Source: a virus
Lineage: Duplodnaviria; Caudoviricetes
Reading direction: 5' to 3' (one strand)
Length of the DNA stretch: 64,000 nt
Virus record (IMG/VR): IMGVR_UViG_3300031784_000003
The first letter of the stretch is position 1. Every line of letters begins with the position of its first letter. Of this stretch, positions 13,768 to 47,230 are shown one piece after another. A program made the position numbers and the translations under genes. The notes below the pieces were generated by a model, which saw only the letters and a program-made list of their open reading frames with translations, had not been told where the DNA came from and did no database searches.

Positions 13768-13770
13768 ATT

Positions 13771-14337: not shown

Positions 14338-14357
14338 ATTAAAACTATATCATTATT

Positions 14358-20552: not shown

Positions 20553-20573
20553 CTCTTTTTATAAATAAATATC

Positions 20574-27355: not shown

Positions 27356-27679
27356 TTATAATTCTTTTATAATACCTTTCATTAGTAAAGTATTATAAGC
27401 AATTTTAAATGGGATAGAAGTTTTATTTAACGCCACTGATCCCATTTTATCATCAATTTCTTCATTATGGTTTAATATTGTCGCAATCATTTCTCTAAAC
27501 ATCTCATATTTAGTGATGTCTATTTGTATTGTAGATTCATCTATTTCCTCTATACCAGTTGCGTCTAATAAAGTATCCTGATTTATTTTAGATTCTATTT
27601 TTACTACATCAGATAATCTATCGATATCAAAGTATAGTTCTTTTCCTCCAATTTGTAGAAGTAAATTATCGTTTTCCAT
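27356..27679 (-). CDS. Hypothetical protein
   Basis: 107-aa ORF; variant motif ATATTTAC at 27720-27727 (minus strand). Confidence 0.75.
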   Translation of the reverse strand: MENDNLLLQIGGKELYFDIDRLSDVVKIESKINQDTLLDATGIEEIDESTIQIDITKYEMFREMIATILNHNEEIDDKMGSVALNKTSIPFKIAYNTLLMKGIIKEL

Positions 27680-29274: not shown

Positions 29275-30189
29275 TTATTTTCTAATATTAGAATAATTTA
29301 ATTCAAACCATTCAATAGTATCTTTCAACCCCTCATAAAGTGGGGTAAATTTAAAATTAGGTAAATATTTTTTTATTTTACTATTGTCTGATGGTTTTCT
29401 AAACTGACCATCGGGTTTAGTTTTATCGAAAATTACCTTACCATTAAAATTCATCAATTCAACTACCATATCAACTAATTCTTTAATAGATATTTCCTCA
29501 GATGTAGATAAGATTATAGGTTCATCTTCATTATAATTTTCTAAAACCCATTCAGTTAATTCTGCAACATCTTTACTATTAATAAATTCTCTTAAAGGTT
29601 TACCTGATCCCCATATAGTAAAATCAGTTTTATATTCTCTAGCAATATAACATTTATGTATTAGTGAGGGTATTACATGCCCATTTTCTATATTGTAATT
29701 ATCGTTAATACCATATATATTTGTAGGAATAACAGATTTATAATTTAACCCATATTGTTCTCTATACGATCTTATTTGAATGTCTGCCATTCTTTTTGCG
29801 TATGCATAAGGGTAATTTGAAAAGTGGGGTTCTCCTAAATGAATTTTATTTTCAGTTAGTGGGTAGTCTACATCGTTAGGGAATATACATGTTGATAAAA
29901 ATGATACTAAATTTTTAACACCAAACATTCTAGCAGATTCTATTATATTAGTATTCATCATAATATTATCGTAGAAAAATTCTCCTTTATATTTCATATT
30001 TCCCCCAACACCACCAACTTTACCTGCACAATGTATAATACCGTCAAAATTATTATTTCCGATTAGTGTGTTGACTTCTGAAGTAATTCTAATGTCAACA
30101 TCTTTAGACGTTGGTTTAAAGTATTTATCCCCTTTAAATTCTGACCCAACTAAACCACTACCTCCAGTGACTAAAATTTTTTTATTCAT
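29275..30189 (-). CDS. fcl: GDP-L-fucose synthase
   Basis: TGGSGLVG, HCAGKVGG, LSTCIFP, YAYAKR, PTNIYGINDNY, WGSGKPLREF, KPDGQFRK. Confidence 0.92.
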   Translation of the reverse strand: MNKKILVTGGSGLVGSEFKGDKYFKPTSKDVDIRITSEVNTLIGNNNFDGIIHCAGKVGGVGGNMKYKGEFFYDNIMMNTNIIESARMFGVKNLVSFLSTCIFPNDVDYPLTENKIHLGEPHFSNYPYAYAKRMADIQIRSYREQYGLNYKSVIPTNIYGINDNYNIENGHVIPSLIHKCYIAREYKTDFTIWGSGKPLREFINSKDVAELTEWVLENYNEDEPIILSTSEEISIKELVDMVVELMNFNGKVIFDKTKPDGQFRKPSDNSKIKKYLPNFKFTPLYEGLKDTIEWFELNYSNIRK

Positions 30190-31183
30190 TTATATATTCT
30201 TTTTCAACACTATAATATTCCAACCAATAATTTATCATATCATCTAACATTGTTTTAAAGGTGTATTTTGGTTTCCACCCTAATTCTAACCTTATTTTAG
30301 ATGAATCTCCTTTTAAATCATGTAACTCTTCAGGTCTAAAATGTTTATCATCTATAACTACATATTTTTTAAAGTCTAAATCTAATTTATTAAATGTATA
30401 TTCACATAAATCTTTAACAGAATATGAGACACCTGTTGAACACACATAATCGTCTGGTTTATCTGATTGTAACATTAACCACATTGCCTCAACATAGTCT
30501 TTTGCGTGACCCCAATCCCTAGTTGCATCAAGATTACCTAAATGTAAATTTTTTTGTAACCCTAATTTAATTCTAACTGCAGCCTTAACAACTTTATTGG
30601 TAACAAAATTTGTACCTCTACGAGGTGACTCATGATTAAACAAAATACCGTTCCATATTTTCATATCATATGAATTTCTATAGTTTCTACATATGTTATA
30701 TGAGAACACTTTTGCGCACCCATATGGTGAAACAGGGTTCATAGGTGTAGTTTCTCTCTGATAACCATCTACATCTATTGAATTACCAAACATTTCAGAT
30801 GATGATGCCTGATATATTTTAGAGTGTGGTGAAACCATTCTAACCGATTCCAATAGATTTAATGTCCCTAAACCTGTTGCGTTAGCAGTATAGATAGGTT
30901 GATCGAAAGAAATTCTCACGTGTGATTGTGCAGCTAAGTTATAAATTTCATCTGGTTGCACTTTTTGTAATACACTTATTAACGAAGCCATATCAGTTAA
31001 ATCCGCATATTCTAATTTAATTTTATCTGTCGACCTTAAATGTTCAATTCTTGTAGATTGTGTTTCCGAAACAGAATTTCTTTTTATTGTTCCCCATACC
31101 TCATATCCTTTTTCTAATAAAAATTCCGCTAAATATGAACCGTCTTGTCCGTTAATACCTGTAATTAATGCTTTTTTTTTCAT
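30182..31183 (-). CDS. gmd: GDP-mannose 4,6-dehydratase
   Basis: ALITGINGQDGSYLAEFLL, YNLAAQSHV, QASSSEMFG, PVSPYGCAK, NHESPRRG.NFVT, RDWGHAKDYV. Confidence 0.96.
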   Translation of the reverse strand: MKKKALITGINGQDGSYLAEFLLEKGYEVWGTIKRNSVSETQSTRIEHLRSTDKIKLEYADLTDMASLISVLQKVQPDEIYNLAAQSHVRISFDQPIYTANATGLGTLNLLESVRMVSPHSKIYQASSSEMFGNSIDVDGYQRETTPMNPVSPYGCAKVFSYNICRNYRNSYDMKIWNGILFNHESPRRGTNFVTNKVVKAAVRIKLGLQKNLHLGNLDATRDWGHAKDYVEAMWLMLQSDKPDDYVCSTGVSYSVKDLCEYTFNKLDLDFKKYVVIDDKHFRPEELHDLKGDSSKIRLELGWKPKYTFKTMLDDMINYWLEYYSVEKEYINE

Positions 31184-31230
31184 ATAATTTTATTTTTAAT
31201 AATATATACGAATTTAATTTATAGTAAATA

Positions 31231-32142
31231 TTATTTTATAATCTTCAATAAAAATTCTTCTAATAAATTAATACCTAAATCATCAATATTTTTTATTATA
31301 GGTTGTCGTAACATTTCATTTAATAAAAAATTATTGGAGTCGATTTCTTTTATTGCCTCAATAAACAAATCGTCATCATTATAATTATGATAATTTAGAA
31401 ATGAATTTTTATTAAAAACCTCATCTATTTTTTCATTACCATAATATATCGGTACAGTATTAGACAAAAACGACTCAATAATTTTTTCATCAATTAATCC
31501 TTCAATATTATATGTCTGATGTTCCTTATAAAAATGATTTTGCATTGCAAAAGAAAACTTAAAATTTTTTATAGAATTTATTTTATGTAGTGATCCGTAA
31601 GGTATAGGGAATGTTTCTTTAGTATCTACAGTTTGATATTCATTTAATTTGTTAAAAATAACATTTCTTTTGTGGGGTGTATTATTAGTATGTAAAAAAA
31701 TACAAAATTTATCTTTTTTATTTATTTCTCTATATTTAGTTAAATAATCAAAAGAGGGTATTATTTTAGTTACATTTATATGATGATATAACCATATGAG
31801 GAAAACAGGCATATAAAAATTTTTATCGATATTAGATTTATATGAGGAAATCATATAATCACAATCACTTATAGATAAAAAATTTCTTTCATTACGTGGG
31901 TATATTTCTAAATTATTATAATGACCTGGCTCACTATTTACATATATTTTTAAACAGTTTTTATAATGTATGTGTGGGTTATCCATCCCTAAAGAATAGA
32001 ATAATATGTCAGGATTTTGACTATCCATTACTACGTCAAAATTTTTTTTTAATAACCATAAAAATATGTTATCATTAGATGAACCAGGTATAGACACATC
32101 ATATGCCTCCCAGTTTAAAAAATGTACTTTTATTTTTTTCAT
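31231..32142 (-). CDS. GT10-like (alpha-1,3/4-fucosyltransferase family) glycosyltransferase
   Basis: KFSFAMQN...LIDEKIIESFLSNTVPIYYG. Confidence 0.7.
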   Translation of the reverse strand: MKKIKVHFLNWEAYDVSIPGSSNDNIFLWLLKKNFDVVMDSQNPDILFYSLGMDNPHIHYKNCLKIYVNSEPGHYNNLEIYPRNERNFLSISDCDYMISSYKSNIDKNFYMPVFLIWLYHHINVTKIIPSFDYLTKYREINKKDKFCIFLHTNNTPHKRNVIFNKLNEYQTVDTKETFPIPYGSLHKINSIKNFKFSFAMQNHFYKEHQTYNIEGLIDEKIIESFLSNTVPIYYGNEKIDEVFNKNSFLNYHNYNDDDLFIEAIKEIDSNNFLLNEMLRQPIIKNIDDLGINLLEEFLLKIIK

Positions 32143-32147
32143 TTTAA

Positions 32148-32813
32148 TTATTTTTTTTCAGTTAAATATTTTTTTATTACCATATAATCTTTTTCTAAAT
32201 CAGGTGACAAAGCGGCAGAATGGTAACTAATACCTTCTGAATTAGTATATGTTGTAGAATGCAACGCACTATTAGCTGACACAAAATTAGAAACTAAAAC
32301 ATTTTCTTCGTATTTAGATATATTTAAATTAATTGCGACTCCCCACAACCACCCATCTGTTTGAGAATAATCCGAAATTCTACCTGTTAAATCAAACCAT
32401 TTTTTAGGTATTATTGGGATTAATGAAAAATGACTATCCCAATTAGATTCTAAAAGGTTAACCTTTACGTAATTAAATTCATTTTCATATTTTTTTAAAT
32501 AAATGTCCCAATCTTTAGATAATATTTTACAATCATCTGCTAAACACCACAATAAATTACCATTTGACATTTCAGATAATTTATTAAAATAGAGATGTAA
32601 ATTTTTATAAAATAACCTTTCAAAAAATACGACTTTAATATTGTTTTTATTTAATATAAAAGTATTTAAAAAATTTATAGTTTCACTATCATCATTATCT
32701 ACACCTAATATAATTTCGTAATTTGCTTCATCACTAGCATTATCAATAATTGAATTTAATGTTATTTCTAATTCATTTATTTTAGATCTCGTTGGAAATA
32801 TAATACTTATCAT
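32148..32813 (-). CDS. GT2-like glycosyltransferase
   Basis: ISIIFPTR..., EIILGVDNDD, LWCLADD. Confidence 0.6.
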   Translation of the reverse strand: MISIIFPTRSKINELEITLNSIIDNASDEANYEIILGVDNDDSETINFLNTFILNKNNIKVVFFERLFYKNLHLYFNKLSEMSNGNLLWCLADDCKILSKDWDIYLKKYENEFNYVKVNLLESNWDSHFSLIPIIPKKWFDLTGRISDYSQTDGWLWGVAINLNISKYEENVLVSNFVSANSALHSTTYTNSEGISYHSAALSPDLEKDYMVIKKYLTEKK

Positions 32814-33670
32814 AATTTAATTTTTTTTAAAATGTAGTTTGACACACCTTCCGTTGAAATATTTTTATTAAAATAGTTCAAATTAAGAATATCAAATTCA
32901 TTTAATTTTTCTATTTTTAAAAGGTTGTGGATTAAATTATCATTTAATTCTGACCAATTATCTAAAAATATTGCGGGTGAGTTTTCGTAAAACCAATTAC
33001 CATAAATAGAATTTTTAGGATATGTAGTTATCACAATACAGTTATTTTCAAATGATTCAAAATATCTAAATGATTCTGGGACTACTGCACCTAAAGGTAC
33101 AATTGATATTTTGGAGTTTGACATTAATTCATAATATTCCTCTAATTTAAATCCTTTAGCAAACCCATCTGTAATATTTACAATAGATTTAAAATTATTT
33201 TTTACTTTATTTAATTGATTTATACACTCTACCCTATTAGGTGACCATTGGGCAGAATAAAAAATATCGTATTCTCTTTCCCTCAACAGTCGTTTTGGTT
33301 TTTCCATATTATCATAACACCAATCAGAGTTACCAAAATAACCCCCAAATCCACATGAAAAACCACATGGTACTGCAAATATTTTTTTATTGTCATGAAG
33401 ATTACTATTACTGTATGTTCTGAATATTAAAAAAAATTCCTCAGTAAATGGTGGAATAATTCCTTTTTCATCAGAAAGTAGAATTAAAATATTTTTTTTA
33501 TTTTTTTTAATACAATTATATAATTGTTGTTTTTCTACTTCATCATTTGATCTAGAAATTATAAAATGATAATTATCATCTAATTCATTTTTTAAATGAT
33601 CTAAAACCCTTAAAAAGTAAGGTGCGTCAGCAACTTCTGGTTTTACCATTGGGGCTATAGTTATTTCCAT
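32810..33670 (-). CDS. Exostosin (GT47)-like glycosyltransferase
   Basis: YYELMSNSKISIVPLGAVVPESFRYFESFENNCIVI matches the exostosin C-terminal pattern. Confidence 0.5.
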   Translation of the reverse strand: MEITIAPMVKPEVADAPYFLRVLDHLKNELDDNYHFIISRSNDEVEKQQLYNCIKKNKKNILILLSDEKGIIPPFTEEFFLIFRTYSNSNLHDNKKIFAVPCGFSCGFGGYFGNSDWCYDNMEKPKRLLREREYDIFYSAQWSPNRVECINQLNKVKNNFKSIVNITDGFAKGFKLEEYYELMSNSKISIVPLGAVVPESFRYFESFENNCIVITTYPKNSIYGNWFYENSPAIFLDNWSELNDNLIHNLLKIEKLNEFDILNLNYFNKNISTEGVSNYILKKIKL

Positions 33671-33671
33671 A

Positions 33672-34331
33672 TTATCCGTTTTGTATTAATCCTGGTTGTG
33701 TCCATGCAACTTTTATTCCCTCAACTTGAATAATTTCGTTTAATTTAAAGTCTATTGGTAAATTTATGATATTAAATCTTGGTAATATTTTCTTAGTAGT
33801 ATCTATATCTAAAATATATGCGTGAGTACATCTTGTTTTTTGATTTTCATTATAATAAACATATTTACCATCAGTTGTATTATGCACATTAAAATTATGT
33901 GATGTGCCTACCATCAACATACCAATAGATTCATTTTTATTCATTTCTATAAACTCATCTACATTTTTTCCTAAAAATTCGTTAAAATTATCAGGTATTA
34001 AAGCATCATCCTCCAGTATTAAAACAGTTTTATAATTATTTTTTATTTGATCAATATAACACCATTTATGTTTTAAGACTAAACTTAAACTACCCATACT
34101 TATTTTTTTTGAAAAGTTTTGGTATATTCCGTGAGGTTGTACTATGTCTACTGGTTCAAAAATTTCCCAATTTAATAGTTCTTTTTCATAATCTATGTCG
34201 TTTGGGTGGTACGTCTGGACTAATTCGTAATCGATACCTTCTTTTTTTAAACTATTTTCTATCACTTCCCTTCTTTTATGGAAATCTACATGATTCAGTA
34301 CATAAATTTTATCTAAATTTTTAATTTTCAT
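33672..34331 (-). CDS. GT25 glycosyltransferase
   Basis: IYVLNH...RRE, SLVLKH, VLILEDDA, CTHAYIL, PIDF. Confidence 0.75.
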   Translation of the reverse strand: MKIKNLDKIYVLNHVDFHKRREVIENSLKKEGIDYELVQTYHPNDIDYEKELLNWEIFEPVDIVQPHGIYQNFSKKISMGSLSLVLKHKWCYIDQIKNNYKTVLILEDDALIPDNFNEFLGKNVDEFIEMNKNESIGMLMVGTSHNFNVHNTTDGKYVYYNENQKTRCTHAYILDIDTTKKILPRFNIINLPIDFKLNEIIQVEGIKVAWTQPGLIQNG

Positions 34332-35229
34332 TTTCTATCAATTCTTTAATTATTTTTATAGGATTATATACGTTAATATAATTATATATCGCCCCATCAA
34401 AGTCATAATTTTTATTTTTTTGATTAATTATTTTTTTTATAGTATCAATTTCATTACCGTCATAATTTAAATACTCATAAGAATTAGGGTAAAATTCAGA
34501 TATAGATTCATGCCCATTATAAATAGGTATAGTTCTACATATTATAGGATCAATAATTTTTTCTGTTATATTACCTCTTATACTAGAATTTTCTAAAGAA
34601 ATAGTATACTCATAATCTTTTAATCCGTTAAGTTTATTACTCAAAAACCCTTTATATCTAACATCATTTACCCCAATAGACCCCCAATCCTGACCATACA
34701 TATCAAAATCCAAATCACTTGATAATAACTTTAATACTAAATTTTCTCTTTCCTTATATCTTGTAATATTATGTATATTTTTTATAGAATGCGCCTCACT
34801 ATGATAATTAACAATTATAGATAATTTTTTAGTTTTAATAAAATTTTGTTCTAATAGTTTTTTAGTAGTCTCATGTTGGTGTATTATCTCACCTTTATAT
34901 TGACATTCATACAATCTATGTGTCCCTAAAAGTGGAGAAAAAACAATATTATCTTTTTTGTAAACATCTGGTTGGTAACTTATTACTTTATTACACCTAT
35001 CAAATAAAGAAGAATCAAAATTAGGTGACCAATTAGGTTCTAATATTATACCATATAAATTTTTTTTATCTATATTAGGTATGTTAGATTTATTTAAAAC
35101 CACTAAATGTGTATAGTCATTACCATATGTAATAATGTCATTATACTTACCATCAATGTTCCAAATATCATTAATAAAACTATAAATATTATAGTCACTA
35201 TTCCAATATGCAATAAATTTAATTTTCAT
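34321..35229 (-). CDS. GT10-like glycosyltransferase
   Basis: DYEYTISLENS...ITEKIIDPIICRTIPIYNG. Confidence 0.7.
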   Translation of the reverse strand: MKIKFIAYWNSDYNIYSFINDIWNIDGKYNDIITYGNDYTHLVVLNKSNIPNIDKKNLYGIILEPNWSPNFDSSLFDRCNKVISYQPDVYKKDNIVFSPLLGTHRLYECQYKGEIIHQHETTKKLLEQNFIKTKKLSIIVNYHSEAHSIKNIHNITRYKERENLVLKLLSSDLDFDMYGQDWGSIGVNDVRYKGFLSNKLNGLKDYEYTISLENSSIRGNITEKIIDPIICRTIPIYNGHESISEFYPNSYEYLNYDGNEIDTIKKIINQKNKNYDFDGAIYNYINVYNPIKIIKELIENEN

Positions 35230-36019
35230 TATAGATGTTATTTTTTATTTTATTTTCCCAATAAACAAAATCTAATTTTTCAGTATTCCATTTACTATTT
35301 ATAATCCTTTCATACTCATCATTTAAAAATTCTTCTGTGATTTCACTCCATTCATTTACAAAACAAATAGGTAAATCTTCGTAAAACCTATTATTTTTAT
35401 TCCTTTTTTCAACTGGTATCGATCCAACATATAAAGTTTCCCAAGTCCTATGAGTATCGATACCATTACCTTCAGGACATAAAACAAATTTATGGTTATG
35501 GATATTATGTAAATAATTATCAAAATTATGACCATTGATACCATTTTCTAATGTAACCCATTTTTTATCTTTAAAAATGTTATAAGGTTCTATTCTTTGG
35601 GAGGGGTTAGTATTTATATTATGACAAACATATAATGTGTTTTTATAATATTTTTTTTGTTCAGATATTTTAATTATCTTATCTAACTTTTTTAGATTAG
35701 TAAACCACATACTATTTTCTAAACCTATAGGTATGGATTCTATTTTATCATGAACCACATCAATATTTTGACCATACCATTTAATTAAATTATCAGGTAT
35801 ATTAATTTTATTTATATCGCAATCATTACTACTACCACTATCAAATCTTTTTGGTGTTTCAGTAACCGATCCATCACTATTATGTGTAATTAAAATAAAA
35901 TTATTTTTAGGTGGGTTAACAAAAAAATCAAATACTTCATGTGTATGACAATAAAAAATTTTTTCATTATCACATAAAGAAATAAAATTTTCACCCTTTA
36001 TATATTTTTTTATTGCCAT
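35219..36019 (-). CDS. Exostosin (GT47)-like glycosyltransferase
   Basis: HKFVLCPEGNGIDTHRTWETLYVGSIPV. Confidence 0.6.
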   Translation of the reverse strand: MAIKKYIKGENFISLCDNEKIFYCHTHEVFDFFVNPPKNNFILITHNSDGSVTETPKRFDSGSSNDCDINKINIPDNLIKWYGQNIDVVHDKIESIPIGLENSMWFTNLKKLDKIIKISEQKKYYKNTLYVCHNINTNPSQRIEPYNIFKDKKWVTLENGINGHNFDNYLHNIHNHKFVLCPEGNGIDTHRTWETLYVGSIPVEKRNKNNRFYEDLPICFVNEWSEITEEFLNDEYERIINSKWNTEKLDFVYWENKIKNNIYNEN

Positions 36020-36801
36020 GAATTATACCATAAATGTATACAAATAGTTTTTTCTGTATTATAAGAATAAATATAATCTTTTAAATCGTCAAACCTACCC
36101 CTAATTTTGTGTCTCTCTGTGGCGGGTAATGGATAAAAGTATGGTGTTGGTAAAACAACTATATCTTCATCTTTTTGACTATTAATATAGTTAAAAAATA
36201 CTGTAGAGAAAAAGTATGGTCCAGTATTATTCATAATAGTTTCATGATTATTATTAGAAACGTCAATATTTTTAAAATTATCATACAACAAATTTAATAA
36301 ATTTTTTAATAAATTGTTATTTTTTGTTGCACCTATTAAACCATTAAAAACCATAGGTTCTCTAGAATGTCCTACACCCGTAAAAAAATCATTTTTTAAT
36401 AACGAATCAAAAGAAGTAACCATCTCAAAATCACTATCCAAATAGATACCACCTTCTCTGTATAGAATTTCATATCTAGCAACATCAGATTTACTACCAT
36501 AATTAGATAAATTGTCGTATAATTCCCTATTAATCATAGGGTAATCCCTTAAATCCTCTTCACCCCAAAGTTTGTATTCCCATTCAGGATGGTTTTCAAT
36601 TATTTTAGGTATTAATTGTTTATGTTCTTTAGGCATATCACCTATCCATATTTGATGAATTTTTTTTGGTATTTTATCAACTTTATTACCACTATTTTGA
36701 AATTTATTATAAAGTTCTTCTATAATATCCCAGTTCCCGTTCGGAACAACATTCCAATGACTTATTAAGTCACACCCCATTAGTTTTTTAAAAGATTCCA
36801 T
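36010..36801 (-). CDS. GT32 (OCH1-like DxD) glycosyltransferase
   Basis: IPKKIHQIWIG, SDVARYEILYREGGIYLDSD, GPYFFS, HLWYNSW. Confidence 0.88.
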   Translation of the reverse strand: MESFKKLMGCDLISHWNVVPNGNWDIIEELYNKFQNSGNKVDKIPKKIHQIWIGDMPKEHKQLIPKIIENHPEWEYKLWGEEDLRDYPMINRELYDNLSNYGSKSDVARYEILYREGGIYLDSDFEMVTSFDSLLKNDFFTGVGHSREPMVFNGLIGATKNNNLLKNLLNLLYDNFKNIDVSNNNHETIMNNTGPYFFSTVFFNYINSQKDEDIVVLPTPYFYPLPATERHKIRGRFDDLKDYIYSYNTEKTICIHLWYNSWQ

Positions 36802-36804
36802 AAT

Positions 36805-37725: not shown

Positions 37726-37740
37726 AATCTTTTATTTTTT

Positions 37741-38685
37741 TTATAATGGTTTCCATACAATTAGTGAGTGACCTTCAATAAAGTAACTACCACTATATGT
37801 TCTTTGTTTATTTAAAATCTTAATTTTACCCTCTTTTTCTAATGAAATTAGATAGGGTAAAAAACCATCTAAATAATTTCTTTTTCTAAAATATCTAATT
37901 GATAAATTATCTATTAATTTAGTTTCATCTAATAATTCATCTATAGGCTCCATATGTATACACACTTTTGGTTTTTTACTAATTAAATAATCAACAAAAC
38001 TTTTATAATTAGAACCAACTTGTTCTAACGCAGCAACTGTGTATATACCTGTTTTTTCTGTCAACTCTATATCATAATTAGGGTTGAAAAAGTCAAAGTT
38101 AAATGGGTTTATGTTTAAACCTAAAGTTTCATTAATTTCTTTTATTATTTTTTGTGACGATGTTGTCCAATCGGATCCATTTAATTTAAAATTATTATTA
38201 TAATTATTTAATCTTATTAAATGATATGCTGGCCCACAACCAAATTCAAAAACATCCTCAACATCTTTAAGATAATGTCTTAAAATTGCATCCACAAAAC
38301 AAATATGAATTTTGTAATCGAAATTTTCTGTTATAGGGTTTACTGGTTCACCTAACCATCTAACAATTCTATTTTTACCATGATATTTAGGTATTAGATT
38401 GTTTATATTTTTATCATTTTTAAAAAGGTTTAAATTTTCTCCCCAACCGTTTTCCCATTCTAAAATTCTGTGCTCACCAGATTTAGTTATGTCACTACTT
38501 AATACGTTAAAAACATTTAAAATATAGTCATCTCTCTCCTCTTTAGATAAAGTTTTATATTTTAAATTAAACTCTTTAATTCTTTCTCTAATTTCTTCAT
38601 CTATTTTAAACCCCAATATTTCTTCAATGTCTTTATAAGTAATTGTTTTAATTTCTGTTTCTGTTTTATACATAATATTTTTCAT
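37741..38685 (-). CDS. Class I SAM-dependent methyltransferase-like protein
   Basis: VFEFGCGPAYHL motif I, GSDWT, FDFFNP. Confidence 0.65.
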   Translation of the reverse strand: MKNIMYKTETEIKTITYKDIEEILGFKIDEEIRERIKEFNLKYKTLSKEERDDYILNVFNVLSSDITKSGEHRILEWENGWGENLNLFKNDKNINNLIPKYHGKNRIVRWLGEPVNPITENFDYKIHICFVDAILRHYLKDVEDVFEFGCGPAYHLIRLNNYNNNFKLNGSDWTTSSQKIIKEINETLGLNINPFNFDFFNPNYDIELTEKTGIYTVAALEQVGSNYKSFVDYLISKKPKVCIHMEPIDELLDETKLIDNLSIRYFRKRNYLDGFLPYLISLEKEGKIKILNKQRTYSGSYFIEGHSLIVWKPL

Positions 38686-39682
38686 ATAATTCTTTTTGCC
38701 ATTTAATTGTGTTATTTAATCCATAAGTTAGTGATTTAAATTTAATATCACCAAACTCATTTGTGTAGGTTTTTGTTGAAATATTTACCATTTTAGGATT
38801 ACCTTCCATTCCCTTAATTTCAGAAGGTATTCTAACCTCTTTACCTAATATATTACCAATAGACTTTGCTAAATCGTATATTGTTGTTATACTGTCACCA
38901 CCTACATTATAAACTGTAGATTTTCCGAACAATAATATGTTCCAAAACATTTCAACAACATCTGTTATGTAACAATATGTTCTTATTGCTTCACCTCTAT
39001 CCATTAATGTAATATCATTGTTTTTTAAACCCTTTTCAATTAAAGAATTTAAAACCCTATGGTCACCTACTTTAGTTCCTGGTCCATATGCTAAACTAAG
39101 TCTTATGATTTTAACATCAACATTTTGTTTTACATATGAATGACATATTGATTCCCCACATCTTTTCCCCTCAATATAACAAGATCTGGGGTGATCAGTG
39201 TTAGTAGTCCCTATTTGTGATTCATCAATACTTTCCACATCTAAACCACTATATAGTTCGCTGGTACTCACAAATAAAAATTTACCACCATCATTTAATT
39301 TATCAAATAAATTAATAGTTGAGTTAGTATTAAGTGATATGGTTTTTATTTTATTTTCTAAAAATTTTCCTGGTTGACCATATCCTGCTGCGTGTATAAT
39401 ACAGTCATATTTAGGTAATTTTTTAAAACTTTCTGAGTTAGTAATATCAGATTGTATAATTTGGCAATCTTTAAAAATTTCATTAAAGGGGTATTCTAAA
39501 TCGTTTTTAACCCAACAAGTTATTTTTAGATTATATTTTTCTTTAATTTCTTTCAAACAAGATACCATATAAACACCAACTAACCCTGATGCACCAGTTA
39601 CCAATATAGATTTATCTTTTAACTGACTAAAATCTATATTATCTACAATTTCTACACATTCTTTTTTTATGATTCTATACAT
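38666..39682 (-). CDS. NAD-dependent nucleotide-sugar dehydratase/decarboxylase (UXS-like SDR)
   Basis: ILVTGASGLVG, IHAAG, VSTSELY, RSCYIEGKR (compare UXS YDEGKR), AYGPG, RTYCYITD. Confidence 0.8.
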   Translation of the reverse strand: MYRIIKKECVEIVDNIDFSQLKDKSILVTGASGLVGVYMVSCLKEIKEKYNLKITCWVKNDLEYPFNEIFKDCQIIQSDITNSESFKKLPKYDCIIHAAGYGQPGKFLENKIKTISLNTNSTINLFDKLNDGGKFLFVSTSELYSGLDVESIDESQIGTTNTDHPRSCYIEGKRCGESICHSYVKQNVDVKIIRLSLAYGPGTKVGDHRVLNSLIEKGLKNNDITLMDRGEAIRTYCYITDVVEMFWNILLFGKSTVYNVGGDSITTIYDLAKSIGNILGKEVRIPSEIKGMEGNPKMVNISTKTYTNEFGDIKFKSLTYGLNNTIKWQKELYEKYYV

Positions 39683-40545
39683 TTTTTAATCCTATTTTTA
39701 ATTCCTAAAACATCTAAATTTAAATTTTTATCATGTTGATCCTTTGTACCATAATTTTTAAGAAACTTATGTGGTACACCTATATTAACTAATGAATATT
39801 TTTTACCCTCTAATGTTTTATTTATGTTATAATTTAAACCTCCTTCATAGAATGGTTCTACTACTATAATATTCTCATTAAAATTATTTTTCAGAGTTTC
39901 TCCGTCAAATGGTTTAATTGATGTGTAATAAAGAATAGTTACATCCATATCTATAGTAGATTCAATAACTTTTTGTAACATATTACCTACACAAATTATA
40001 GTTGCATCTTTTCCTTTTTTTATTACATTCGCTTTACCTAATTTCACATCAACGTCAATACTATTTTCATATTCACTTAATCTATAATAAGTGGGGTTGT
40101 CATTAGAAAACCCTTCCTTAAACAAAGTATCAAATTCCTTTGATGTTCCTGGTAAAATTACTTCCATATTAGGTATAGTTAATAATTGTTGAACGTCTCC
40201 AGGACAGTGGTGGGTTGGACCTAAACCCGCATAGTCATAAGAAGAACCTACACTCACAAAATTACCTTTAAAATTTTGATATCCAAAATCTACTTTTAAT
40301 TGTTCCAAAGATCTTTCCACTAAAAATGGCGCAATTGTATGTACTATAGGATTTAATCCCACACTAGATAAACCAGAAGATAAACTGATGGTACTTTGTT
40401 CTAAAATACCTATATTATAAACCCTATTAGGGTAATTTATAAATGATTCCCTAAACCCAAATACACCAATATCTCCTAATAGTAATACCGCATTTTGATC
40501 ATTTTTTAAAATACTTTCTACAGTTTTAACAAATTGTTTTCTCAT
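39667..40545 (-). CDS. Transketolase, C-terminal (pyrimidine-binding) subunit
   Basis: YNIGILEQS, GPTHHCPGD, PTYYRLS, SIKPFD, VVEPFYEGGL. Confidence 0.88.
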   Translation of the reverse strand: MRKQFVKTVESILKNDQNAVLLLGDIGVFGFRESFINYPNRVYNIGILEQSTISLSSGLSSVGLNPIVHTIAPFLVERSLEQLKVDFGYQNFKGNFVSVGSSYDYAGLGPTHHCPGDVQQLLTIPNMEVILPGTSKEFDTLFKEGFSNDNPTYYRLSEYENSIDVDVKLGKANVIKKGKDATIICVGNMLQKVIESTIDMDVTILYYTSIKPFDGETLKNNFNENIIVVEPFYEGGLNYNINKTLEGKKYSLVNIGVPHKFLKNYGTKDQHDKNLNLDVLGIKNRIKKCIES

Positions 40546-41273
40546 AATAATTCTGTAATAATTTTTTTATATTCATCATCATTTGGTGATTTATGATGCC
40601 ATTCAGGATTATTTTCCATAATACTACAACCTTTACCTTTAATAGTATTGCATAATATGAAAATAGGTTTATCTGAATTACTGGATAGTGCCTCATATAT
40701 TTCTTCGTTATTATGACCATCAACTTCTATACACTCCCAATTAAATGAAGTAAACTTTTTAATAACATCATCAATTTTTAGTGCCCTATCATTAGATCTG
40801 TTATAATCCATTATACAGTATAAATTATTTAATTTATGGTGAGACGCTAATAACGCAGATTCCCAATTAGTCCCTTCATTAGATTCTCCATCACCAATAA
40901 TTACAAAAACTTTATTATCATTATTTTTTATTTTTTCACCTAATGCAATTCCAACACCCATAGGTAAACCATGACCTAAAGATCCTGTTGATGCCTCTAT
41001 ATTCTTAACCCTATTTGATGGGTGACCCCCTAACATACTTTCATATTCACAAAAATTATCTAAGTCTTGATCCAATAAACCAAAATGCTCTAAAATTGCG
41101 TATAAACCTAAAGACGCATGACCCTTACTCAATATGAAGTGATGATCACTGTTTTTCAATATTTTATCATAAAGTACATATAAAATATTTAATACCGATA
41201 ATGAGCTACCAATATGACCTTCTTTAGATTTATGAGAAATGTCAATTATTCTTTTAATTATTTTTTTTTCCAT
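40542..41273 (-). CDS. Transketolase, N-terminal (ThDP-binding) subunit
   Basis: GHIGSSLS, ILSKGHAS, TGSLGHGL, GDGESNEGTNWES...N (GDG-x-N ThDP motif), TIKGKG, WHH. Confidence 0.92.
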   Translation of the reverse strand: MEKKIIKRIIDISHKSKEGHIGSSLSVLNILYVLYDKILKNSDHHFILSKGHASLGLYAILEHFGLLDQDLDNFCEYESMLGGHPSNRVKNIEASTGSLGHGLPMGVGIALGEKIKNNDNKVFVIIGDGESNEGTNWESALLASHHKLNNLYCIMDYNRSNDRALKIDDVIKKFTSFNWECIEVDGHNNEEIYEALSSNSDKPIFILCNTIKGKGCSIMENNPEWHHKSPNDDEYKKIITELL

Positions 41274-42076
41274 TCATTAATTTTTTCATATATTATGTCA
41301 TCAGCCACCAAATACTTTTTAGATAAATTAAAATTATTTTCGATACTTTTAATTTTACTAAGATACACATCTTTATTCAATTTAGGAATTAAATTTTGTA
41401 ATTCTTCGATTGTCTCAAAAAATAAAAATCCATCAGTGTCAAAAAAGTCCCCTATAGACGGACATCCATAATAGACAGGTATTGTTCCAGTAACTAAACA
41501 ATCTAATAATTTTTCTGTAAATAAATAATCCATTACCTGATTTTCCATTACAATACAAAACATATAATCCTTTAATACATCTATTTTATTTTCTATATGT
41601 ATATATCCTGAACCATAAACGTCAATACCTGACACATTTTGTATAACTTCATGTCTATATTTATGTGCTTTAGTTATTTTTTTGTTTGAGGCAATAGTGC
41701 AAATAATTTTATTTTCATCCTTATCATATATTTTTCTATCCTCTTCAGATATCCAACAACCTCCAATAGGTAACATCTCAAATTTGTCAGATAATTCTAA
41801 CAATTTTTTATCATAAGTAAATATTTTCTCAAAAAGATTATGATTTTTTATTGCAAAATCATATGTATGATTAGTAACTTCTGGCGGCTCTATAATCCAA
41901 CCATACAACCTTTTATCTTTAATATGATTAACAATTTCTAAATTTGTTGTCACAATATCATTTGTTTGTTCATAATTACCTCTAACCCAAACAAATTTTT
42001 GAGGTTCATTATACCAACTAGATGATGGTGCATGTGAAAATTGATTGTCGTATATATATAAATTATCTTTTTTCAT
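41258..42076 (-). CDS. GT10-like glycosyltransferase
   Basis: DYMFCIVMEN...YLFTEKLLDCLVTGTIPVYYG. Confidence 0.75.
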   Translation of the reverse strand: MKKDNLYIYDNQFSHAPSSSWYNEPQKFVWVRGNYEQTNDIVTTNLEIVNHIKDKRLYGWIIEPPEVTNHTYDFAIKNHNLFEKIFTYDKKLLELSDKFEMLPIGGCWISEEDRKIYDKDENKIICTIASNKKITKAHKYRHEVIQNVSGIDVYGSGYIHIENKIDVLKDYMFCIVMENQVMDYLFTEKLLDCLVTGTIPVYYGCPSIGDFFDTDGFLFFETIEELQNLIPKLNKDVYLSKIKSIENNFNLSKKYLVADDIIYEKINEWKKK

Positions 42077-42088
42077 TTTTTTCTATAA

Positions 42089-42700
42089 TCACCCTTTAAT
42101 ATAAAACGCATCACCCCAAGTTACGCCCTCCCAAGTTGTTTCAACTCTACTGAACCCATAAGAATTTAAAAATTGATCTAATTCTTCTACTTTAGCACAC
42201 CCTTTATATAATTCAGCTCTATTCACTTCAGTCATTACATAATCAACAGAATTTAAAAATTCTGAACCACCCTTAAATACTTCTAATTCATAACCCTGAA
42301 CGTCAATATTAATAAAATTATAGTTAATATTTTCGTCTATAAAATTGTCTAATTTTGTAATCTTAACTTTTTCTTTACCATTAAATTGAATGGTTGGATG
42401 TTGGACTAAATGGTAATCAGGTTCTAAAACAGAACTAGATTGCCCTTCATTAATTGTTTCAGTAAACATTTCTACCTCACCTTCTATATTACCCAACGCG
42501 GTATTAACTAATATTGCCTTATCCCCAACATTTTCTTTTAGTCTATCAAATGTTTTTTTTAAAGGTTCAAAAAACATAACGTTTTTAATACCTAATCTTT
42601 CGTAGGTTTGAAATTCTTGACCAATATGTGCCCCAATATGTAAAACACCTTTAATTTTTAAATTGTATTTTTCTTTTAAACTATCTAAATTTAATAACAT
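42089..42700 (-). CDS. FkbM-family methyltransferase
   Basis: VLHIGAHIGQE, FFEP, NIDVQGYELEVFKG, TEVN, WGDAFY. Confidence 0.88.
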   Translation of the reverse strand: MLLNLDSLKEKYNLKIKGVLHIGAHIGQEFQTYERLGIKNVMFFEPLKKTFDRLKENVGDKAILVNTALGNIEGEVEMFTETINEGQSSSVLEPDYHLVQHPTIQFNGKEKVKITKLDNFIDENINYNFINIDVQGYELEVFKGGSEFLNSVDYVMTEVNRAELYKGCAKVEELDQFLNSYGFSRVETTWEGVTWGDAFYIKG

Positions 42701-42766
42701 AAGAATTATTTTTTTTTATTATATAATATAAAATTATAGTAAAATTTTTTTAAAAAGTAAATGAAT

Positions 42767-43582
42767 TTATTTTAAAAATCCATTATCATAAACAACATTT
42801 ATTTTTTTCCATTTTGGTTCATAGACATCTGTATAATCTTTATGACCTTTTGGTCCAAACCAAACAGAAGGTACACATACCTTTTTGTTTTTATTTTTAT
42901 TTAGGTATGATCCCCACCAAGAAAAAGATGAATTAGACATAATATTATGATTACATAAACTAATTGCCCATAAATCTTCATAATCATTTAAATCGGTAAC
43001 AATAGTAGATTTATCATAATTTAAATTTTTTTCTGCCCATTCTTTATCATTTGTAAAAATAAATAAGTGAGAATATTTACCAATAGATTTTAGGGACTTA
43101 TCTATATAACTTTTTTCTATTACTGGTAAAATATCAGACACAGTTAAATAATCCCCTCTTCTAATATGAATAGATACTGAATTTTTTTCGAATATTAGTG
43201 GGTATAAAGTCATTAATTTTTGTTTAAACTCTTCAGTTGGTAAAAATAAGTTTTTTATATTCTCACTATAATTTTTAAAATTTTTACTACTTTGGTAATA
43301 ACCATAAAACATTATTGAGGTGTCATAACCATATTTTAAATCGTTATAATTCCAAGATATTTCGTCAACTCTTTTTTGTGGATTAATATTATCTTTAAAG
43401 TCAATATTTCTAAAGATATTATCTACATAGGTAATAGTTTGATTACCTTCCATAGGAAGAAATGAGAAAGGTTTAAAATAGACAGGTGTGTTATGAATAT
43501 ACCCTTCTGTTTTGGCTTTGGCAATTTGAAACATTTGATTACCCAAACCACCCATTAAATGTGTTGTTATAAATTTTTCCAT
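42767..43582 (-). CDS. GT11 alpha-1,2-fucosyltransferase-like
   Basis: MGGLGNQMFQ, SIHIRRGDY, CNHNIMSNSSFSWWGSYL; start moved to the ATG at 43582 next to the upstream stop. Confidence 0.9.
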   Translation of the reverse strand: MEKFITTHLMGGLGNQMFQIAKAKTEGYIHNTPVYFKPFSFLPMEGNQTITYVDNIFRNIDFKDNINPQKRVDEISWNYNDLKYGYDTSIMFYGYYQSSKNFKNYSENIKNLFLPTEEFKQKLMTLYPLIFEKNSVSIHIRRGDYLTVSDILPVIEKSYIDKSLKSIGKYSHLFIFTNDKEWAEKNLNYDKSTIVTDLNDYEDLWAISLCNHNIMSNSSFSWWGSYLNKNKNKKVCVPSVWFGPKGHKDYTDVYEPKWKKINVVYDNGFLK

Positions 43583-43583
43583 A

Positions 43584-44198
43584 TTAAAATAACCACTTAT
43601 AGTTAACATTTTTATTTTGTATATCACTAAAACTTTCTCTTTGTAACGCAATACTAGGATTAAACCCATAACAATTATAAGATTTTTGTATATCGGCATA
43701 ATATACGTCTATCGGTTTTCCTCTTTTACTTATTAAATCCAATATTAAGTCATAAATAGTATTGTTTATAACCACACAATGTATACCATATGTTTCATTT
43801 AATTTTATTATTTTTTCATTTAAAAAATTAATTTGTTTACCCATATGTTTATTGTGGTTTCCTCCAAAATATATCATATCCCAATCGGAAGGTAATAATG
43901 ACATATATTCATCTAAATTTTTTATTTCTTCAGTAAATTCTATATCATCTTCTAATATTAATATATTTTTATAACCTTTTTCCTTAGCCTCATTAATAAT
44001 GTTAATGTGGGTAGTTAAGATACCTAATTCTCCATTATTTATTGTAGTATTATTAATTAATGTGTTACCATCTACGGCAGAATAACGAGTAACACTATCA
44101 GACAATCCCCACTTACCTAATTCTTCTAGTGTTTCATTCCACCTATCTTCTCTGCGATCAAGATTTATACAATAAATTTTATCAAAATAATTTTTCAT
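43584..44198 (-). CDS. GT25 glycosyltransferase
   Basis: YCINLDRREDR, GELGILTTH, ILILEDD, MIYFGG, PIDVYY. Confidence 0.85.
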   Translation of the reverse strand: MKNYFDKIYCINLDRREDRWNETLEELGKWGLSDSVTRYSAVDGNTLINNTTINNGELGILTTHINIINEAKEKGYKNILILEDDIEFTEEIKNLDEYMSLLPSDWDMIYFGGNHNKHMGKQINFLNEKIIKLNETYGIHCVVINNTIYDLILDLISKRGKPIDVYYADIQKSYNCYGFNPSIALQRESFSDIQNKNVNYKWLF

Positions 44199-44201
44199 AA
44201 T

Positions 44202-45062
44202 TTAAATATAAGTTTTTAAAATTTCAGATTTATATTCTATAATTTGATTTAACACTCCATCACCTAATTTTTTTATATCCTCATATAACTCTTCTAATAT
44301 TAAGGAATCATTGTTAGATTGTATTTCGTGATATAAATGTAATAATTCGTTTTTAGGGTTGTCTACAGAATGAATCTTTTCTAAGGTTTCAACTTTATTC
44401 CAAAAAAATATATCTTCTGGTGACCAACCATAAAATAATTCAGGATCGTAACCACCAACATTAAAGAATAATTCTTTATTCACAAATATTGATCCACCAG
44501 GTGCACCATAATCACCTTCCCTAACTTCCTCCAAATTAATATCGTTAATATTTATTTCTTTATTTAATAAATTTTGTGATTGTTGTTCATTTAAATAAAG
44601 TACTCTACGATTAAAAAATGTTTGTAAACATTCTGATTTTTTAGATTCTTTATTCTCCATTAAATTTAAGAAAAAATTATCATAAACTAAACAGTCTAAA
44701 TCATGAAACAAAAAATATTTAGAATTTTTATTTAATAATGCACCAATATTATGACATAAACATTTATTGAATTTGTTTTCTACACTATTGATCCAATAAT
44801 ACCCTACCCCATAACTCTTACAAATTTCATAATATTCTCTATTTGTTGAATGTTCAACAATTGTAACATTAATTTTTAGATTTGTTTTTTCTATTGCAGA
44901 TTTTAAATGTGATAAAGATGCGTCAACAAAATTAATCCTACCTCTAACTGGTATTATTACACTAATATCAAACTTTTTAAATGGTTTTTTCTTTTTAATT
45001 TCTTTGTAAAAAACATCAAACCTATTAATATCTATTATATTTTTAATATCTGAAAAAATCAT
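44202..45062 (-). CDS. GT2/GT7-like glycosyltransferase
   Basis: ISVIIPVRGR, FLFHDLD, GGSIFVNKELFFNVGGYD..FYGWSPED. Confidence 0.72.
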   Translation of the reverse strand: MIFSDIKNIIDINRFDVFYKEIKKKKPFKKFDISVIIPVRGRINFVDASLSHLKSAIEKTNLKINVTIVEHSTNREYYEICKSYGVGYYWINSVENKFNKCLCHNIGALLNKNSKYFLFHDLDCLVYDNFFLNLMENKESKKSECLQTFFNRRVLYLNEQQSQNLLNKEININDINLEEVREGDYGAPGGSIFVNKELFFNVGGYDPELFYGWSPEDIFFWNKVETLEKIHSVDNPKNELLHLYHEIQSNNDSLILEELYEDIKKLGDGVLNQIIEYKSEILKTYI

Positions 45063-45694
45063 ATTTCAATAACTCTCCTATTATCTTCAACTTTATTTTG
45101 AATATCACTATAACTAACTCTTTGTAATGCAATACTTGGATAAAAAGAATAGACATTTAATTCTTTTTGTAATTCACTATAGTAAATGTCAACAGGTTTC
45201 TTACAACCTTTAATTAAGGTTAAACACTTATCATAACAAGTGTCTCTAAAAACAATACAATGAGTAGTAAACGTCTTACTACATTTAATTATATTATCAT
45301 TTATTTTATTTATTTTTTCTCCTTCATGTAGATTGTGGTTTCCACCAAAATAAAGAATGTCCCAATCACTTGGGACTATCGACATATATTCATCTAATTT
45401 TTTTATCTCTTCAGTAAATTCTATATCGTCTTCTATTATTAATATATTTTTATATTTTTTAGTTTTGGCTAATTGTAATAAATTTATATGGGTTTTTAGT
45501 AAACCCAATTCACCATTATTAACCCTAAATATATTATTATCATAACTTAATTTACTACCATCAACACCCTTAAATCTATTAACTCCGTCAAATAAATTCC
45601 ATTTTTTAAGTTCTGATACAGTTTCATTCCACCTATCTTTCCTTCTATCTAAATTAATACAAAAAACCCTATCAAAATATTTTTTTAAACTCAT
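45059..45694 (-). CDS. GT25 glycosyltransferase (paralogue of 43584-44198)
   Basis: FCINLDRRKDR, GELGLLKTH, ILIIEDD, ILYFGG, PVDIYY. Confidence 0.85.
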   Translation of the reverse strand: MSLKKYFDRVFCINLDRRKDRWNETVSELKKWNLFDGVNRFKGVDGSKLSYDNNIFRVNNGELGLLKTHINLLQLAKTKKYKNILIIEDDIEFTEEIKKLDEYMSIVPSDWDILYFGGNHNLHEGEKINKINDNIIKCSKTFTTHCIVFRDTCYDKCLTLIKGCKKPVDIYYSELQKELNVYSFYPSIALQRVSYSDIQNKVEDNRRVIEI

Positions 45695-47094: not shown

Positions 47095-47230
47095 TTTTTA
47101 AACTATTATAATATTTTCTTATTTCATTACCTAATGTTTGATCATTAGGAAATTTTAAAATCATTTCTAAAATATGAAAAGAATCAATCTTTTTTGATAA
47201 TTCATATTTTTTAGGATCAATGTTTACCAC
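47087..47230 (-). CDS. Possible small protein missed by the track (47 aa, GTG start)
   Basis: Translated by hand: MVNIDPKKYELSKKIDSFHILEMILKFPNDQTLGNEIRKYYNSLKND; fills the gap and overlaps both neighbours. Confidence 0.35.
   Translation of the reverse strand: MVNIDPKKYELSKKIDSFHILEMILKFPNDQTLGNEIRKYYNSLKND

Follow-up and report, generated by a model that had tools for sequence, protein, structure and literature searches.

A glycan gene block in a freshwater T4-like phage

The stretch at positions 29275-45694 of the 64,000-nucleotide viral sequence analyzed here (IMG/VR record IMGVR_UViG_3300031784_000003, the whole of which is referred to as the window) is the middle part of a 24-kb block of 29 genes (25395-49639), all on the minus strand. 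The open reading frames (ORFs) of all 29 genes are intact and tightly packed, and many of them overlap by 1-23 nucleotides. The block contains gmd and fcl, for making GDP-L-fucose, together with 13 firm and three probable glycosyltransferase genes. These approximately 16 transferases are three GT10-like, one GT11, three GT25, four GT2 (one of which has two domains), one GT32, two RXYLT1/GT47-like and two GT-B proteins. The other genes encode an FkbM-family and a class I methyltransferase, a cassette of a split transketolase and two short-chain dehydrogenases/reductases (SDRs), a dUTPase, an HD-domain protein, a PhoH protein, and two small proteins with no assigned function. We consider it very probable that this island makes a glycan specified by the phage.

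The window belongs to a tailed phage, as seen from the genes for a large terminase (9195-10988), a portal protein (11038-12966) and a T4-type major head protein (16493-18232). The major head protein is 41-43% identical to its nearest relatives in GenBank, which are from an uncultured huge phage, Flavobacterium phage immuto and Microcystis phage Mel-JY01. The block is located within a run of minus-strand genes that extends from 55437 down to 19146. No close cultured relative was found, and a megablast search of the 16.4-kb stretch against the GenBank phages gave a single match of 165 bp. Seventeen sequencing runs labeled as lake water, freshwater, aquaculture or “fungus” metagenomes, from several studies from 2019 to 2024, contain a 10-kb part of the island DNA in near-identical form; three of them possibly represent the source sample, and no RNA run was among those listed. 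The phage that carries the island is an uncultured freshwater T4-like giant phage.

For comparison, we used five related metagenomic contigs. One of these, G001, is a 51.8-kb IMG/VR contig that contains a syntenic island with protein identities of 39-79%, and the other four (L062, L064, L066 and L067; contigs of 35-422 kb) were reached via homologs of Fcl and of one of the GT10-like proteins (GT10_1).

Enzymes encoded by the block

An initial annotation of the stretch had singled out nine genes, gmd, fcl, three GT10-like genes, one GT11 gene and three GT25 genes, as a Lewis/blood-group-like fucosylation set. All nine genes are present and intact on the minus strand at the positions given below, and all exceed their curated Pfam cut-offs. 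The Gmd protein (GDP-mannose 4,6-dehydratase, 30182-31183) covers the full GDP_Man_Dehyd profile (E 2e-124, 416 bits), scores 408 bits against TIGR01472, for which the equivalog cut-off is 415, and matches solved GMD structures with E-values from 1e-100 to 2e-90. It is about equally similar to the GMDs of all domains of life, eukaryotic and bacterial alike.

The Fcl protein (GDP-L-fucose synthase, 29275-30189) resembles the eukaryotic FX enzyme, and only Fcl, not Gmd, is FX-like. It matches the NCBIfam Fcl family (E 3e-70) with 237 bits, against a strict equivalog cut-off of 500. Among solved structures, the best scores were obtained with the human enzyme (PDB 4E5Y, E 9e-94, 318 bits) and that of Naegleria (278 bits), as compared to 168 bits for the E. 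coli enzyme (1E6U). The Ser-x-Cys (STC), Tyr-x3-Lys (YxxxK) and Gly-His-Val (GHV) segments are identical in the alignment with human FX. The Ser-x-Cys, Tyr-x3-Lys and His segments contain the reductase triad and the two acid/base residues of the epimerization, and their retention marks the protein as a GDP-L-fucose synthase of the FX type, as opposed to a simple reductase. Metagenomic relatives of Fcl at 75-95% identity fall into more than 100 clusters (at 90% identity), and those that were looked up are located on phage-like contigs in the same gene frame. The identity is at most 43% to homologs in prokaryote genomes, as identified by a pattern-based scan that finds only some homologs, and at most 44% to any Fcl from a GenBank phage. 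Since both proteins are full length and have kept their catalytic residues, the phage is predicted to encode a complete pathway that turns GDP-mannose into GDP-L-fucose, in agreement with the initial annotation. No gene for the formation of GDP-mannose was identified among the window proteins scanned, and GDP-mannose is therefore presumably derived from the host.

The three GT10-like genes are GT10_1 (31231-32142), located directly upstream of gmd and fcl, GT10_2 (34321-35229), which has a 73% orthologue in G001, and GT10_3 (41258-42076). They match PF00852 with 34, 28.8 and 37.7 bits, respectively, at a cut-off of 23.9 bits. In a search against the PDB sequences, all three matched the Helicobacter pylori fucosyltransferase FucT (2NZW), FUT9 and the plant FucTA (E 9e-9 to 4e-6); the match to 2NZW had E 9e-9 for GT10_1 and E 6e-7 for GT10_2, while GT10_3 matched the plant FucTA, H. 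pylori FucT and FUT9 with E 2e-7 to 4e-6. The FEN motif of the family is divergent, as the initial annotation had described: the Phe is replaced by Met, Leu and Met in GT10_1, GT10_2 and GT10_3, and in GT10_1 the Glu is also replaced by Gln, which gives the motif pairs MQN...DEK, LEN...TEK and MEN...TEK. Alignments with metagenomic homologs revealed the positions that are kept. In GT10_1 (n = 28), E71, R159, E219 and K220 are invariant and N202 is nearly so; in GT10_2 (n = 26), E64, R161, E213, E223 and K224 are invariant and the motif Asn is N214; and in GT10_3 (n = 20), E63, R141, E178, N179, E188 and K189 are invariant. According to pairwise alignments, in which E71 is aligned to Glu95, the counterparts of the conserved residues in the H. 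pylori enzyme are Glu95, Arg195, Asn240, Glu249 and Lys250. From the 2NZW work, we take Glu95 to be the catalytic base and the other four to bind the donor.

The AlphaFold model of GT10_1, the only one of the three to be modeled, has a pLDDT of 93.7 and shows a two-domain GT-B fold. The best Foldseek match of the model is H. pylori FucT (E 3.5e-16, TM 0.68, 17-18% identity), and the 18 highest-ranking PDB matches are without exception GT10 enzymes, including FUT9, mango FUT13 and Arabidopsis FUT11. Distant homologs of GT10_1 carry PF00852 together with the FucT N-terminal domain PF18025. The sequence similarity between the GT10-like proteins and H. pylori FucT is mainly found in the donor-binding C-terminal half. 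Homologs of GT10_3 at 31-35% identity are present in the cyanophages S-SSM7, S-SM2, S-T4 and S-SCSM2R.

The GT11 gene was listed at 42767-43699. An internal ATG at 43582 directly follows the stop codon of the upstream gene and is most likely the true start, which gives a corrected gene at 42767-43582. The protein matches PF01531 (E 2.5e-24, 86.5 bits) over positions 28-297 of 298, contains the motifs GGLGNQMFQ, HIRRGDY and SNSSFSWWG, and has a 55% orthologue in G001. The three GT25 proteins match PF01755 (cut-off 24 bits) with 54.7 bits for copy 1 (33672-34331; E 1.5e-14, profile positions 3-197 of 199), 34.8 bits for copy 2 (43584-44198) and 30.7 bits for copy 3 (45059-45694). Their DXD-type motifs, as expected of GT-A enzymes, are present in the form LEDD/IEDD, with ILEDD in copy 2 and IIEDD in copy 3. 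Searches against the PDB sequences gave no meaningful match of a solved structure to the GT11 protein or to GT25 copy 1. Copies 2 and 3 (43584-45694) share 61% identity and lie on either side of a GT2 gene, and G001 has a single GT25 gene at this place. Their sequences indicate a local duplication with insertion in the lineage of the window.

Judged from these matches, the family membership of the GT10-like, GT11 and GT25 proteins is sound, and donor and linkage are predicted at the family level only. The residues needed for binding of a GDP-sugar and for inverting transfer are present in the three GT10-like proteins and in the GT11 protein, and there is a good likelihood that at least one of these four enzymes transfers L-fucose. 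The orthologue of GT10_1 is located next to gmd without fcl in L066 and inside the transketolase cassette in L067, and the donor of GT10_1 is therefore likely, not certain, to be GDP-fucose. Because a complete GDP-L-fucose route occurs together with four GT10/GT11 transferases in which the key residues are intact, a product that contains fucose is likely.

A second set of sugar genes lies at 36805-41273, on the minus strand like the rest of the block. It encodes the N-terminal, ThDP-binding subunit of a split transketolase (40542-41273; Transketolase_N, E 1.2e-36; 66-69% orthologues in four relatives), the subunit with the pyrimidine-binding and C-terminal domains (39667-40545; Transket_pyr, E 2.5e-14; Transketolase_C, E 7e-7), and SDR2 (38666-39682), which is similar to nucleotide-sugar dehydratases and epimerases (Pfam Epimerase, E 1.9e-39) with its best NCBIfam matches far below the cut-offs. 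These are followed by a class I SAM methyltransferase-like protein (37741-38685) that has no Pfam match, a GxGxG-type motif, ESM Atlas neighbors in Methyltransf_25/11/31 and 64-66% orthologues in the relatives, and by SDR1 (36805-37725), which is similar to nucleotide-sugar epimerases and reductases (Pfam Epimerase, E 2.6e-31; 66-80% orthologues in the relatives). The cassette is 55-80% identical in four relatives, among them G001, L066 and L067. In L067, a GT10 gene is inserted into it, and in L066 it includes an extra TylF methyltransferase. A tblastn search with a transketolase subunit against phages recovered nothing beyond short fragments and phage-labeled records of bacterial appearance, which indicates that the cassette is absent from genuine cultured phage genomes. 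Literature searches gave nothing usable on a part played by split transketolases in gene clusters for O-antigens or capsules. The cassette probably makes a second, undescribed sugar nucleotide that is chain-extended or branched, and methylated.

The block starts, after a gap of 347 nucleotides, with a phage-type GT-B glycosyltransferase (48383-49639; PHROG 7162 glycosyltransferase, E 1.7e-39), whose ESM Atlas neighbors are virus-only GT1/GT4-like clusters and which has a 52% orthologue in G001. It is followed by two backbone genes, one for an HD-domain-like protein (47792-48355; Pfam HD, E 0.004, below the cut-off), which is not a glycan enzyme, and one for the dUTPase (47217-47792; Pfam dUTPase, E 1.5e-24), which forms the upstream edge of a variable slot and does so also in L062, L064 and G001. 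The first gene within the slot encodes the two-domain GT2 protein (45691-47094; Glycos_transf_2, E 2.4e-36 in two stretches), which also matches the Pfam families Glyco_tranf_2_5 (E 3e-30) and Glyco_transf_7C (33.7 bits), the latter representing a GT7C-like region in the second domain; its orthologues in the relatives are 36-59% identical. The gene between GT25 copies 2 and 3 encodes a GT2-like glycosyltransferase (44202-45062; Pfam Glyco_tranf_2_2, 38.3 bits at a cut-off of 27.3). Between the GT11 gene and GT10_3 is the gene for the FkbM-family methyltransferase (42089-42700; Methyltransf_21, E 3e-19; TIGR01444, 80 bits at a cut-off of 37.7), which by its family matches is probably a sugar O-methyltransferase.

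Downstream of the transketolase cassette are the genes for a GT32-type protein with a DXD sugar-binding region (36010-36801; Pfam Gly_transf_sug, E 1.1e-14; Caps_synth, E 1.3e-9) and an RXYLT1/exostosin (GT47)-like glycosyltransferase (35219-36019; RXYLT1_C, 30.5 bits at a cut-off of 27). The protein encoded at 32810-33670 is a weak paralogue of the latter and a probable RXYLT1-like glycosyltransferase (RXYLT1_C, E 0.0086, below the cut-off), with a 68% orthologue in G001. The next gene encodes a GT2 glycosyltransferase (32148-32813; Glycos_transf_2, 28.6 bits at a cut-off of 23.3) that has no match in G001. The PhoH-like ATPase (28486-29238; Pfam PhoH, E 5e-62) belongs to the backbone and forms the downstream edge of the slot. 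Two further transferases beyond PhoH are part of the backbone of the lineage: a phage-type GT-B protein (26216-27334) without a Pfam match, with 36-41% orthologues in the relatives and no match among the GenBank phages, and a GT2 protein (25395-26171; Glycos_transf_2, E 7e-16; 43-47% orthologues in the relatives). The Atlas model of this GT-B protein has TM values of 0.69-0.76 to GT1/GT4 clusters and 0.84-0.93 to virus-only clusters. The neighboring gene, on the same strand and outside the pathway, encodes a candidate gp55-like late sigma factor (24652-25386; PHROG 234, E 3.6e-5; Sigma70_r2, E 2.9e-4, below the cut-off).

A slot of exchangeable content, probably outside the late expression class

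Four of the five relatives (G001, L062, L064 and L066) share a common gene frame with the window, in which the dUTPase gene is followed by a variable island, gmd with or without fcl, and PhoH, either directly or past one or two small genes. After PhoH, the frame continues with two small genes, the GT-B gene, the GT2 gene and the sigma-like gene. The dUTPase edge lies outside the stretch covered for L066, and the sugar cassettes are all that was found in L067. The content of the slot differs between the contigs. The island in L062 includes GT92, DAO and sugar-isomerase genes, that in L064 includes GT15, FkbM and GFO/IDH oxidoreductase genes, and that in L066 includes DegT, FdtA, NeuB and CMP-sugar synthetase genes, with gmd present without fcl. 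In G001, the place of a GT2 gene (GT2b), GT10_1 and fcl is taken by one GT11-like gene, one FkbM-like gene and another SDR gene. The combination of a conserved slot between dUTPase and PhoH with a transferase content that is swapped suggests that the glycan varies between strains in the manner of an O-antigen, and the exchange of content among phages at a fixed position implies that there is selection on the structure of the glycan.

The identity to the relatives is 31-50% for the backbone proteins, 74-84% for Gmd and Fcl, and 55-80% for the shared cassettes. This suggests that the cassettes have been exchanged between diverged phages, with a contribution also from slower evolution of the enzymes. 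The genes at 6931-9710 in L066, which encode a DegT aminotransferase, an FdtA-like isomerase, a CMP-sugar synthetase-like protein and NeuB in the same slot, point to the synthesis of an amino-deoxy sugar and a nonulosonic (sialic-acid-like) sugar in that phage. In the 422-kb contig L067, a UDP-GlcNAc 2-epimerase-like gene and an SDR gene (12503-14962 and 20167-20930) are interrupted by inteins that contain LAGLIDADG endonuclease domains, according to precomputed Pfam matches.

A candidate late-promoter motif, ATATTTAT, was identified on the sense strand 5-33 nucleotides before the start codons of most of the virion-type genes (window positions 2019-62868, both strands), including the terminase, portal and fiber-like genes. 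Of the 26 upstream gaps outside the block, 16 contain it, as compared to none of the 12 gaps inside (Fisher p = 3e-4). The absence of the motif from its gaps places the island in a non-late class, together with the genes for PhoH, the dUTPase and the sigma-like protein, which have the strand and spacing of the block, and we infer that its expression is timed accordingly. Near-variants of the motif, TAATATTTA(C/G), are located 41-42 nucleotides before the starts of the first gene of the block (48383-49639), of gmd and of the gene at 27356-27679. The T4 late box, TATAAATA, did not separate the gene classes in the window, and scans for sigma-70-like promoters and terminators were at chance level (93 found, 93.5 expected).

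Proposed product and acceptor

In the pathway that we propose, soluble phage enzymes would act on the cytoplasmic side of the membrane during infection and build a non-repeating oligosaccharide that contains fucose and is methylated in part. The GT25, GT2, GT32, GT47/RXYLT1-like and GT-B transferases would add further sugars, so that the glycan extends the lipid A-core of the host, in the manner of a lipooligosaccharide (LOS), or another lipid-linked glycan of the host. The host machinery (MsbA/Lpt or equivalents) would then export the glycan, and the surface of the infected cell may thereby change in a way that, for example, excludes other phages or keeps the progeny off infected cells and debris. 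None of the 29 block proteins contains a hydrophobic segment of the type found in membrane proteins, and the Pfam lists of the block are free of flippases, polymerases, regulators of chain length, ABC transporters and initiating phosphoglycosyl transferases. These export and initiation families are likewise absent from the Pfam lists of the islands in L062, L064, L066 and L067; G001 was covered in part. The block thus differs from O-antigen or capsule clusters that depend on Wzx/Wzy or an ABC transporter. GT25 is a classic family of LOS extension, and such pathways need no flippase or polymerase encoded by the cluster. Since the block contains this family, belongs to the non-late class and shows an O-antigen-like variability, we tentatively favor a molecule of the host envelope over virion proteins as the acceptor. 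Modification of the host surface has also been put forward, as a hypothesis, for comparable clusters in cyanophages (PMC9602691, PMC12801897).

Several points speak against an acceptor in the host envelope. Being probably lytic, the phage would have little time to export a new surface glycan. The absence of export genes fits equally well with glycosylation of proteins in the cytoplasm, and the conserved GT-B proteins that flank the island belong to virus-only families, which is a better fit to a virus-specific acceptor. Early expression of the glycosylation genes in chloroviruses means that non-late expression is compatible with glycosylation of the virion. To our knowledge, sixteen transferases far exceed the set found in seroconverting phages, and we know of no experiment on a phage cluster of this kind. 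As to GT10_1, its donor is uncertain, given the contexts of its orthologues in L066 and L067.

Alternatively, the soluble enzymes may decorate, in the cytoplasm, proteins of the phage capsid, fiber or tail, either before the particles are assembled or while this takes place, in which case the variable island would set the “glycan serotype” of the particle and serve to shield it or tune its adhesion. We regard this as somewhat doubtful, though nearly as likely as an envelope acceptor. Chloroviruses, mimiviruses and some mycobacteriophages glycosylate the proteins of their own particles, and the chlorovirus PBCV-1 similarly combines GDP-fucose synthesis with soluble transferases and a methyltransferase. 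That all enzymes are soluble, that export genes are lacking and that virus-only GT-B families lie on both sides of the island is as expected for such a system. A possible acceptor is a late-class fiber-like protein that contains nine Thr/Ser-rich repeats of 10 residues. Its ORF (62885-64000, plus strand), which is preceded by ATATTTAT and runs off the end of the window, is rich in Thr, Ser, Gly and Asn, with approximately nine tandem TISATTATIN units encoded by a 30-nucleotide repeat (8.6 copies, 90% matches). That this protein is an acceptor of O-glycans is speculation, and no collagen-like repeat, which might be a substrate of GT25 enzymes, was found in the window. What speaks against glycosylation of the virion is that the candidate late-promoter motif found before virion genes is missing from the island, and that the families GT25, GT10, GT11, GT2 and GT32 are typical of the lipid-linked assembly of LPS, LOS and capsules. 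The literature searched yielded no report of a T4-like phage with a glycosylated virion. For mycobacteriophages, glycosylation of the virion has been demonstrated (Freeman et al. 2023, cited in PMC12619734).

In its most far-reaching form, this alternative would make the island an autonomous virion-glycosylation system of a T4-like phage, with a fucose-rich, methylated glycan placed on particle proteins such as the Thr-rich fiber, an undescribed sugar derived from the transketolase cassette, and a swappable “glycan serotype” locus across an abundant freshwater lineage. We hold this to be rather unlikely. If true, it would be the counterpart in a bacterial virus of the glycosylation in chloroviruses and mimiviruses. 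Whichever acceptor applies, host envelope or virion, its identity would explain a widespread class of “auxiliary” phage genes.

The initial annotation had suggested that the phage may make fucosylated epitopes that mimic those of animals or of the host. In its specific form, the GT10, GT11 and GT25 enzymes would build Lewis x/y or blood-group-like structures, with LacNAc-based chains that carry alpha1,2- and alpha1,3-linked fucose. Helicobacter pylori combines the same families (a GT25 beta1,4-galactosyltransferase, FutA/B of GT10 and FutC of GT11), the catalytic residues are conserved in the GT10-like proteins, and the two-domain GT2 protein has a GT7C-like region. However, an identical combination of GT10, GT11, GT25 and SDR genes is found in Synechococcus cyanophages and is therefore not diagnostic of Lewis structures. 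The identity to H. pylori FucT is 17-18% and mainly confined to the donor-binding half, so that acceptor and linkage are not predictable from it, and there is no evident reason for a freshwater phage to mimic animal glycans. The methyltransferases and the unusual-sugar cassette are foreign to Lewis chemistry, and together with the approximately 12 other transferases they indicate a methylated heteroglycan of bacterial or viral type rather than a LacNAc chain. What stands of the suggestion is a fucosylation set with four GT10/GT11 transferases that have kept their key residues; its “Lewis/blood-group-like” and “animal-like” epitopes are unsupported, and we consider them improbable. It is more improbable still that the transferases, in part or as a whole, add sugars to modified bases of the phage DNA, as in T-even and other phages: the island adjoins the dUTPase and HD-domain genes, with a thymidylate synthase gene further off, GT-B proteins are encoded at its edges, and the T4 DNA glucosyltransferases are among the distant GT-B matches in the Foldseek search with the GT10_1 model, but the thymidylate synthase homolog best matches ordinary ThyA (E 5e-62) and not a hydroxymethylase, no base-hydroxymethylating enzyme was seen in the window, and fucosyltransferase families, methyltransferases and approximately 16 transferases go far beyond the DNA-glycan systems that we know of.

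Glycan gene islands in large T4-like phages are already known, and the island in the window is an unusually large example. Fucose-glycan clusters have been annotated in such phages since P-SSM2. The T4-like cyanophages P-SSM2, S-SSM7, S-SKS1, S-SCSM1 and S-SCSM2R likewise contain clusters labeled “LPS” or “cell wall synthesis and modification”, with hypothetical functions, and the pair of gmd and a GDP-L-fucose synthase gene is found in 76 GenBank phage records, mostly from cyanophages. As in the window, S-SSM7 and S-SCSM2R have SDR epimerases, a GT10-like protein (31-32% identical to GT10_3), GT11 and other transferases in one gene run, which in S-SSM7 also contains an adjacent methyltransferase and GT25. 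In S-SCSM2R, GT25 is listed in the published table elsewhere in the genome, and the authors note that its 13 glycosyltransferases genome-wide, including GT10, GT11 and GT25, are possibly the most in a marine phage (PMC12801897). S-SCSM1 has gmd, fcl and three fucosyltransferases (PMC9602691). The window differs in that its approximately 16 transferase genes are located in one block, as compared to 13 in the whole genome of S-SCSM2R, and in that it comes from a freshwater phage of a different host lineage. It also differs in the FX-like Fcl protein, which is at most 44% identical to those of the GenBank phages, and in the split-transketolase cassette, for which cultured phages have no counterpart. 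A scan of the whole window at the Rfam gathering thresholds identified no RNA family, and the wcaG RNA that is annotated beside the S-SCSM2R cluster was not found. The new details are thus the FX-like Fcl, three divergent GT10 paralogues, the split-transketolase cassette, and a fixed slot with exchangeable content.

The H. pylori Lewis enzymes belong to the same CAZy families as their phage counterparts, the phage GT10-like proteins share the two-domain GT-B fold of the H. pylori GT10 enzyme, and the HxRRGDY motif of GT11 is kept in the phage. At this low level of identity, however, the acceptor-side half is not recognizably similar in sequence, and the surrounding genes are wholly different. 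The GT10 enzymes in H. pylori have a long C-terminal repeat and a membrane-association tail, which the phage GT10-like proteins, at 272-303 residues, lack. Chlorovirus PBCV-1 resembles the window in having a viral GDP-fucose route (GMD and GMER), soluble transferases, a sugar methyltransferase domain and no membrane export genes. Its product is a fucose-containing, methylated and non-repeating glycan, the attachment of which to the major capsid protein has been shown experimentally. PBCV-1 is on the other hand a eukaryotic algal virus with other transferase families, and the island in the window falls outside the late class. Bacterial O-antigen and capsule loci of the E. coli O86/O128 type also have gmd and fcl beside genes of fucosyltransferase families in a hypervariable, fixed slot, and differ from the window and the Pfam lists of four relatives, from which Wzx, Wzy, Wzz, ABC transporters and initiating phosphoglycosyl transferases are all absent. 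The three GT10-like proteins, the GT11 protein, the FX-type Fcl and the split-transketolase cassette represent compact, soluble candidates for glycoengineering assays.

One more repeat protein is encoded among the late-class genes. This protein of 712 residues (58404-60542, plus strand) contains approximately ten DUF285 (BspA-type leucine-rich) repeats, which correspond to a tandem repeat of 75 nucleotides in approximately 18 copies, and is probably a surface or fiber protein.

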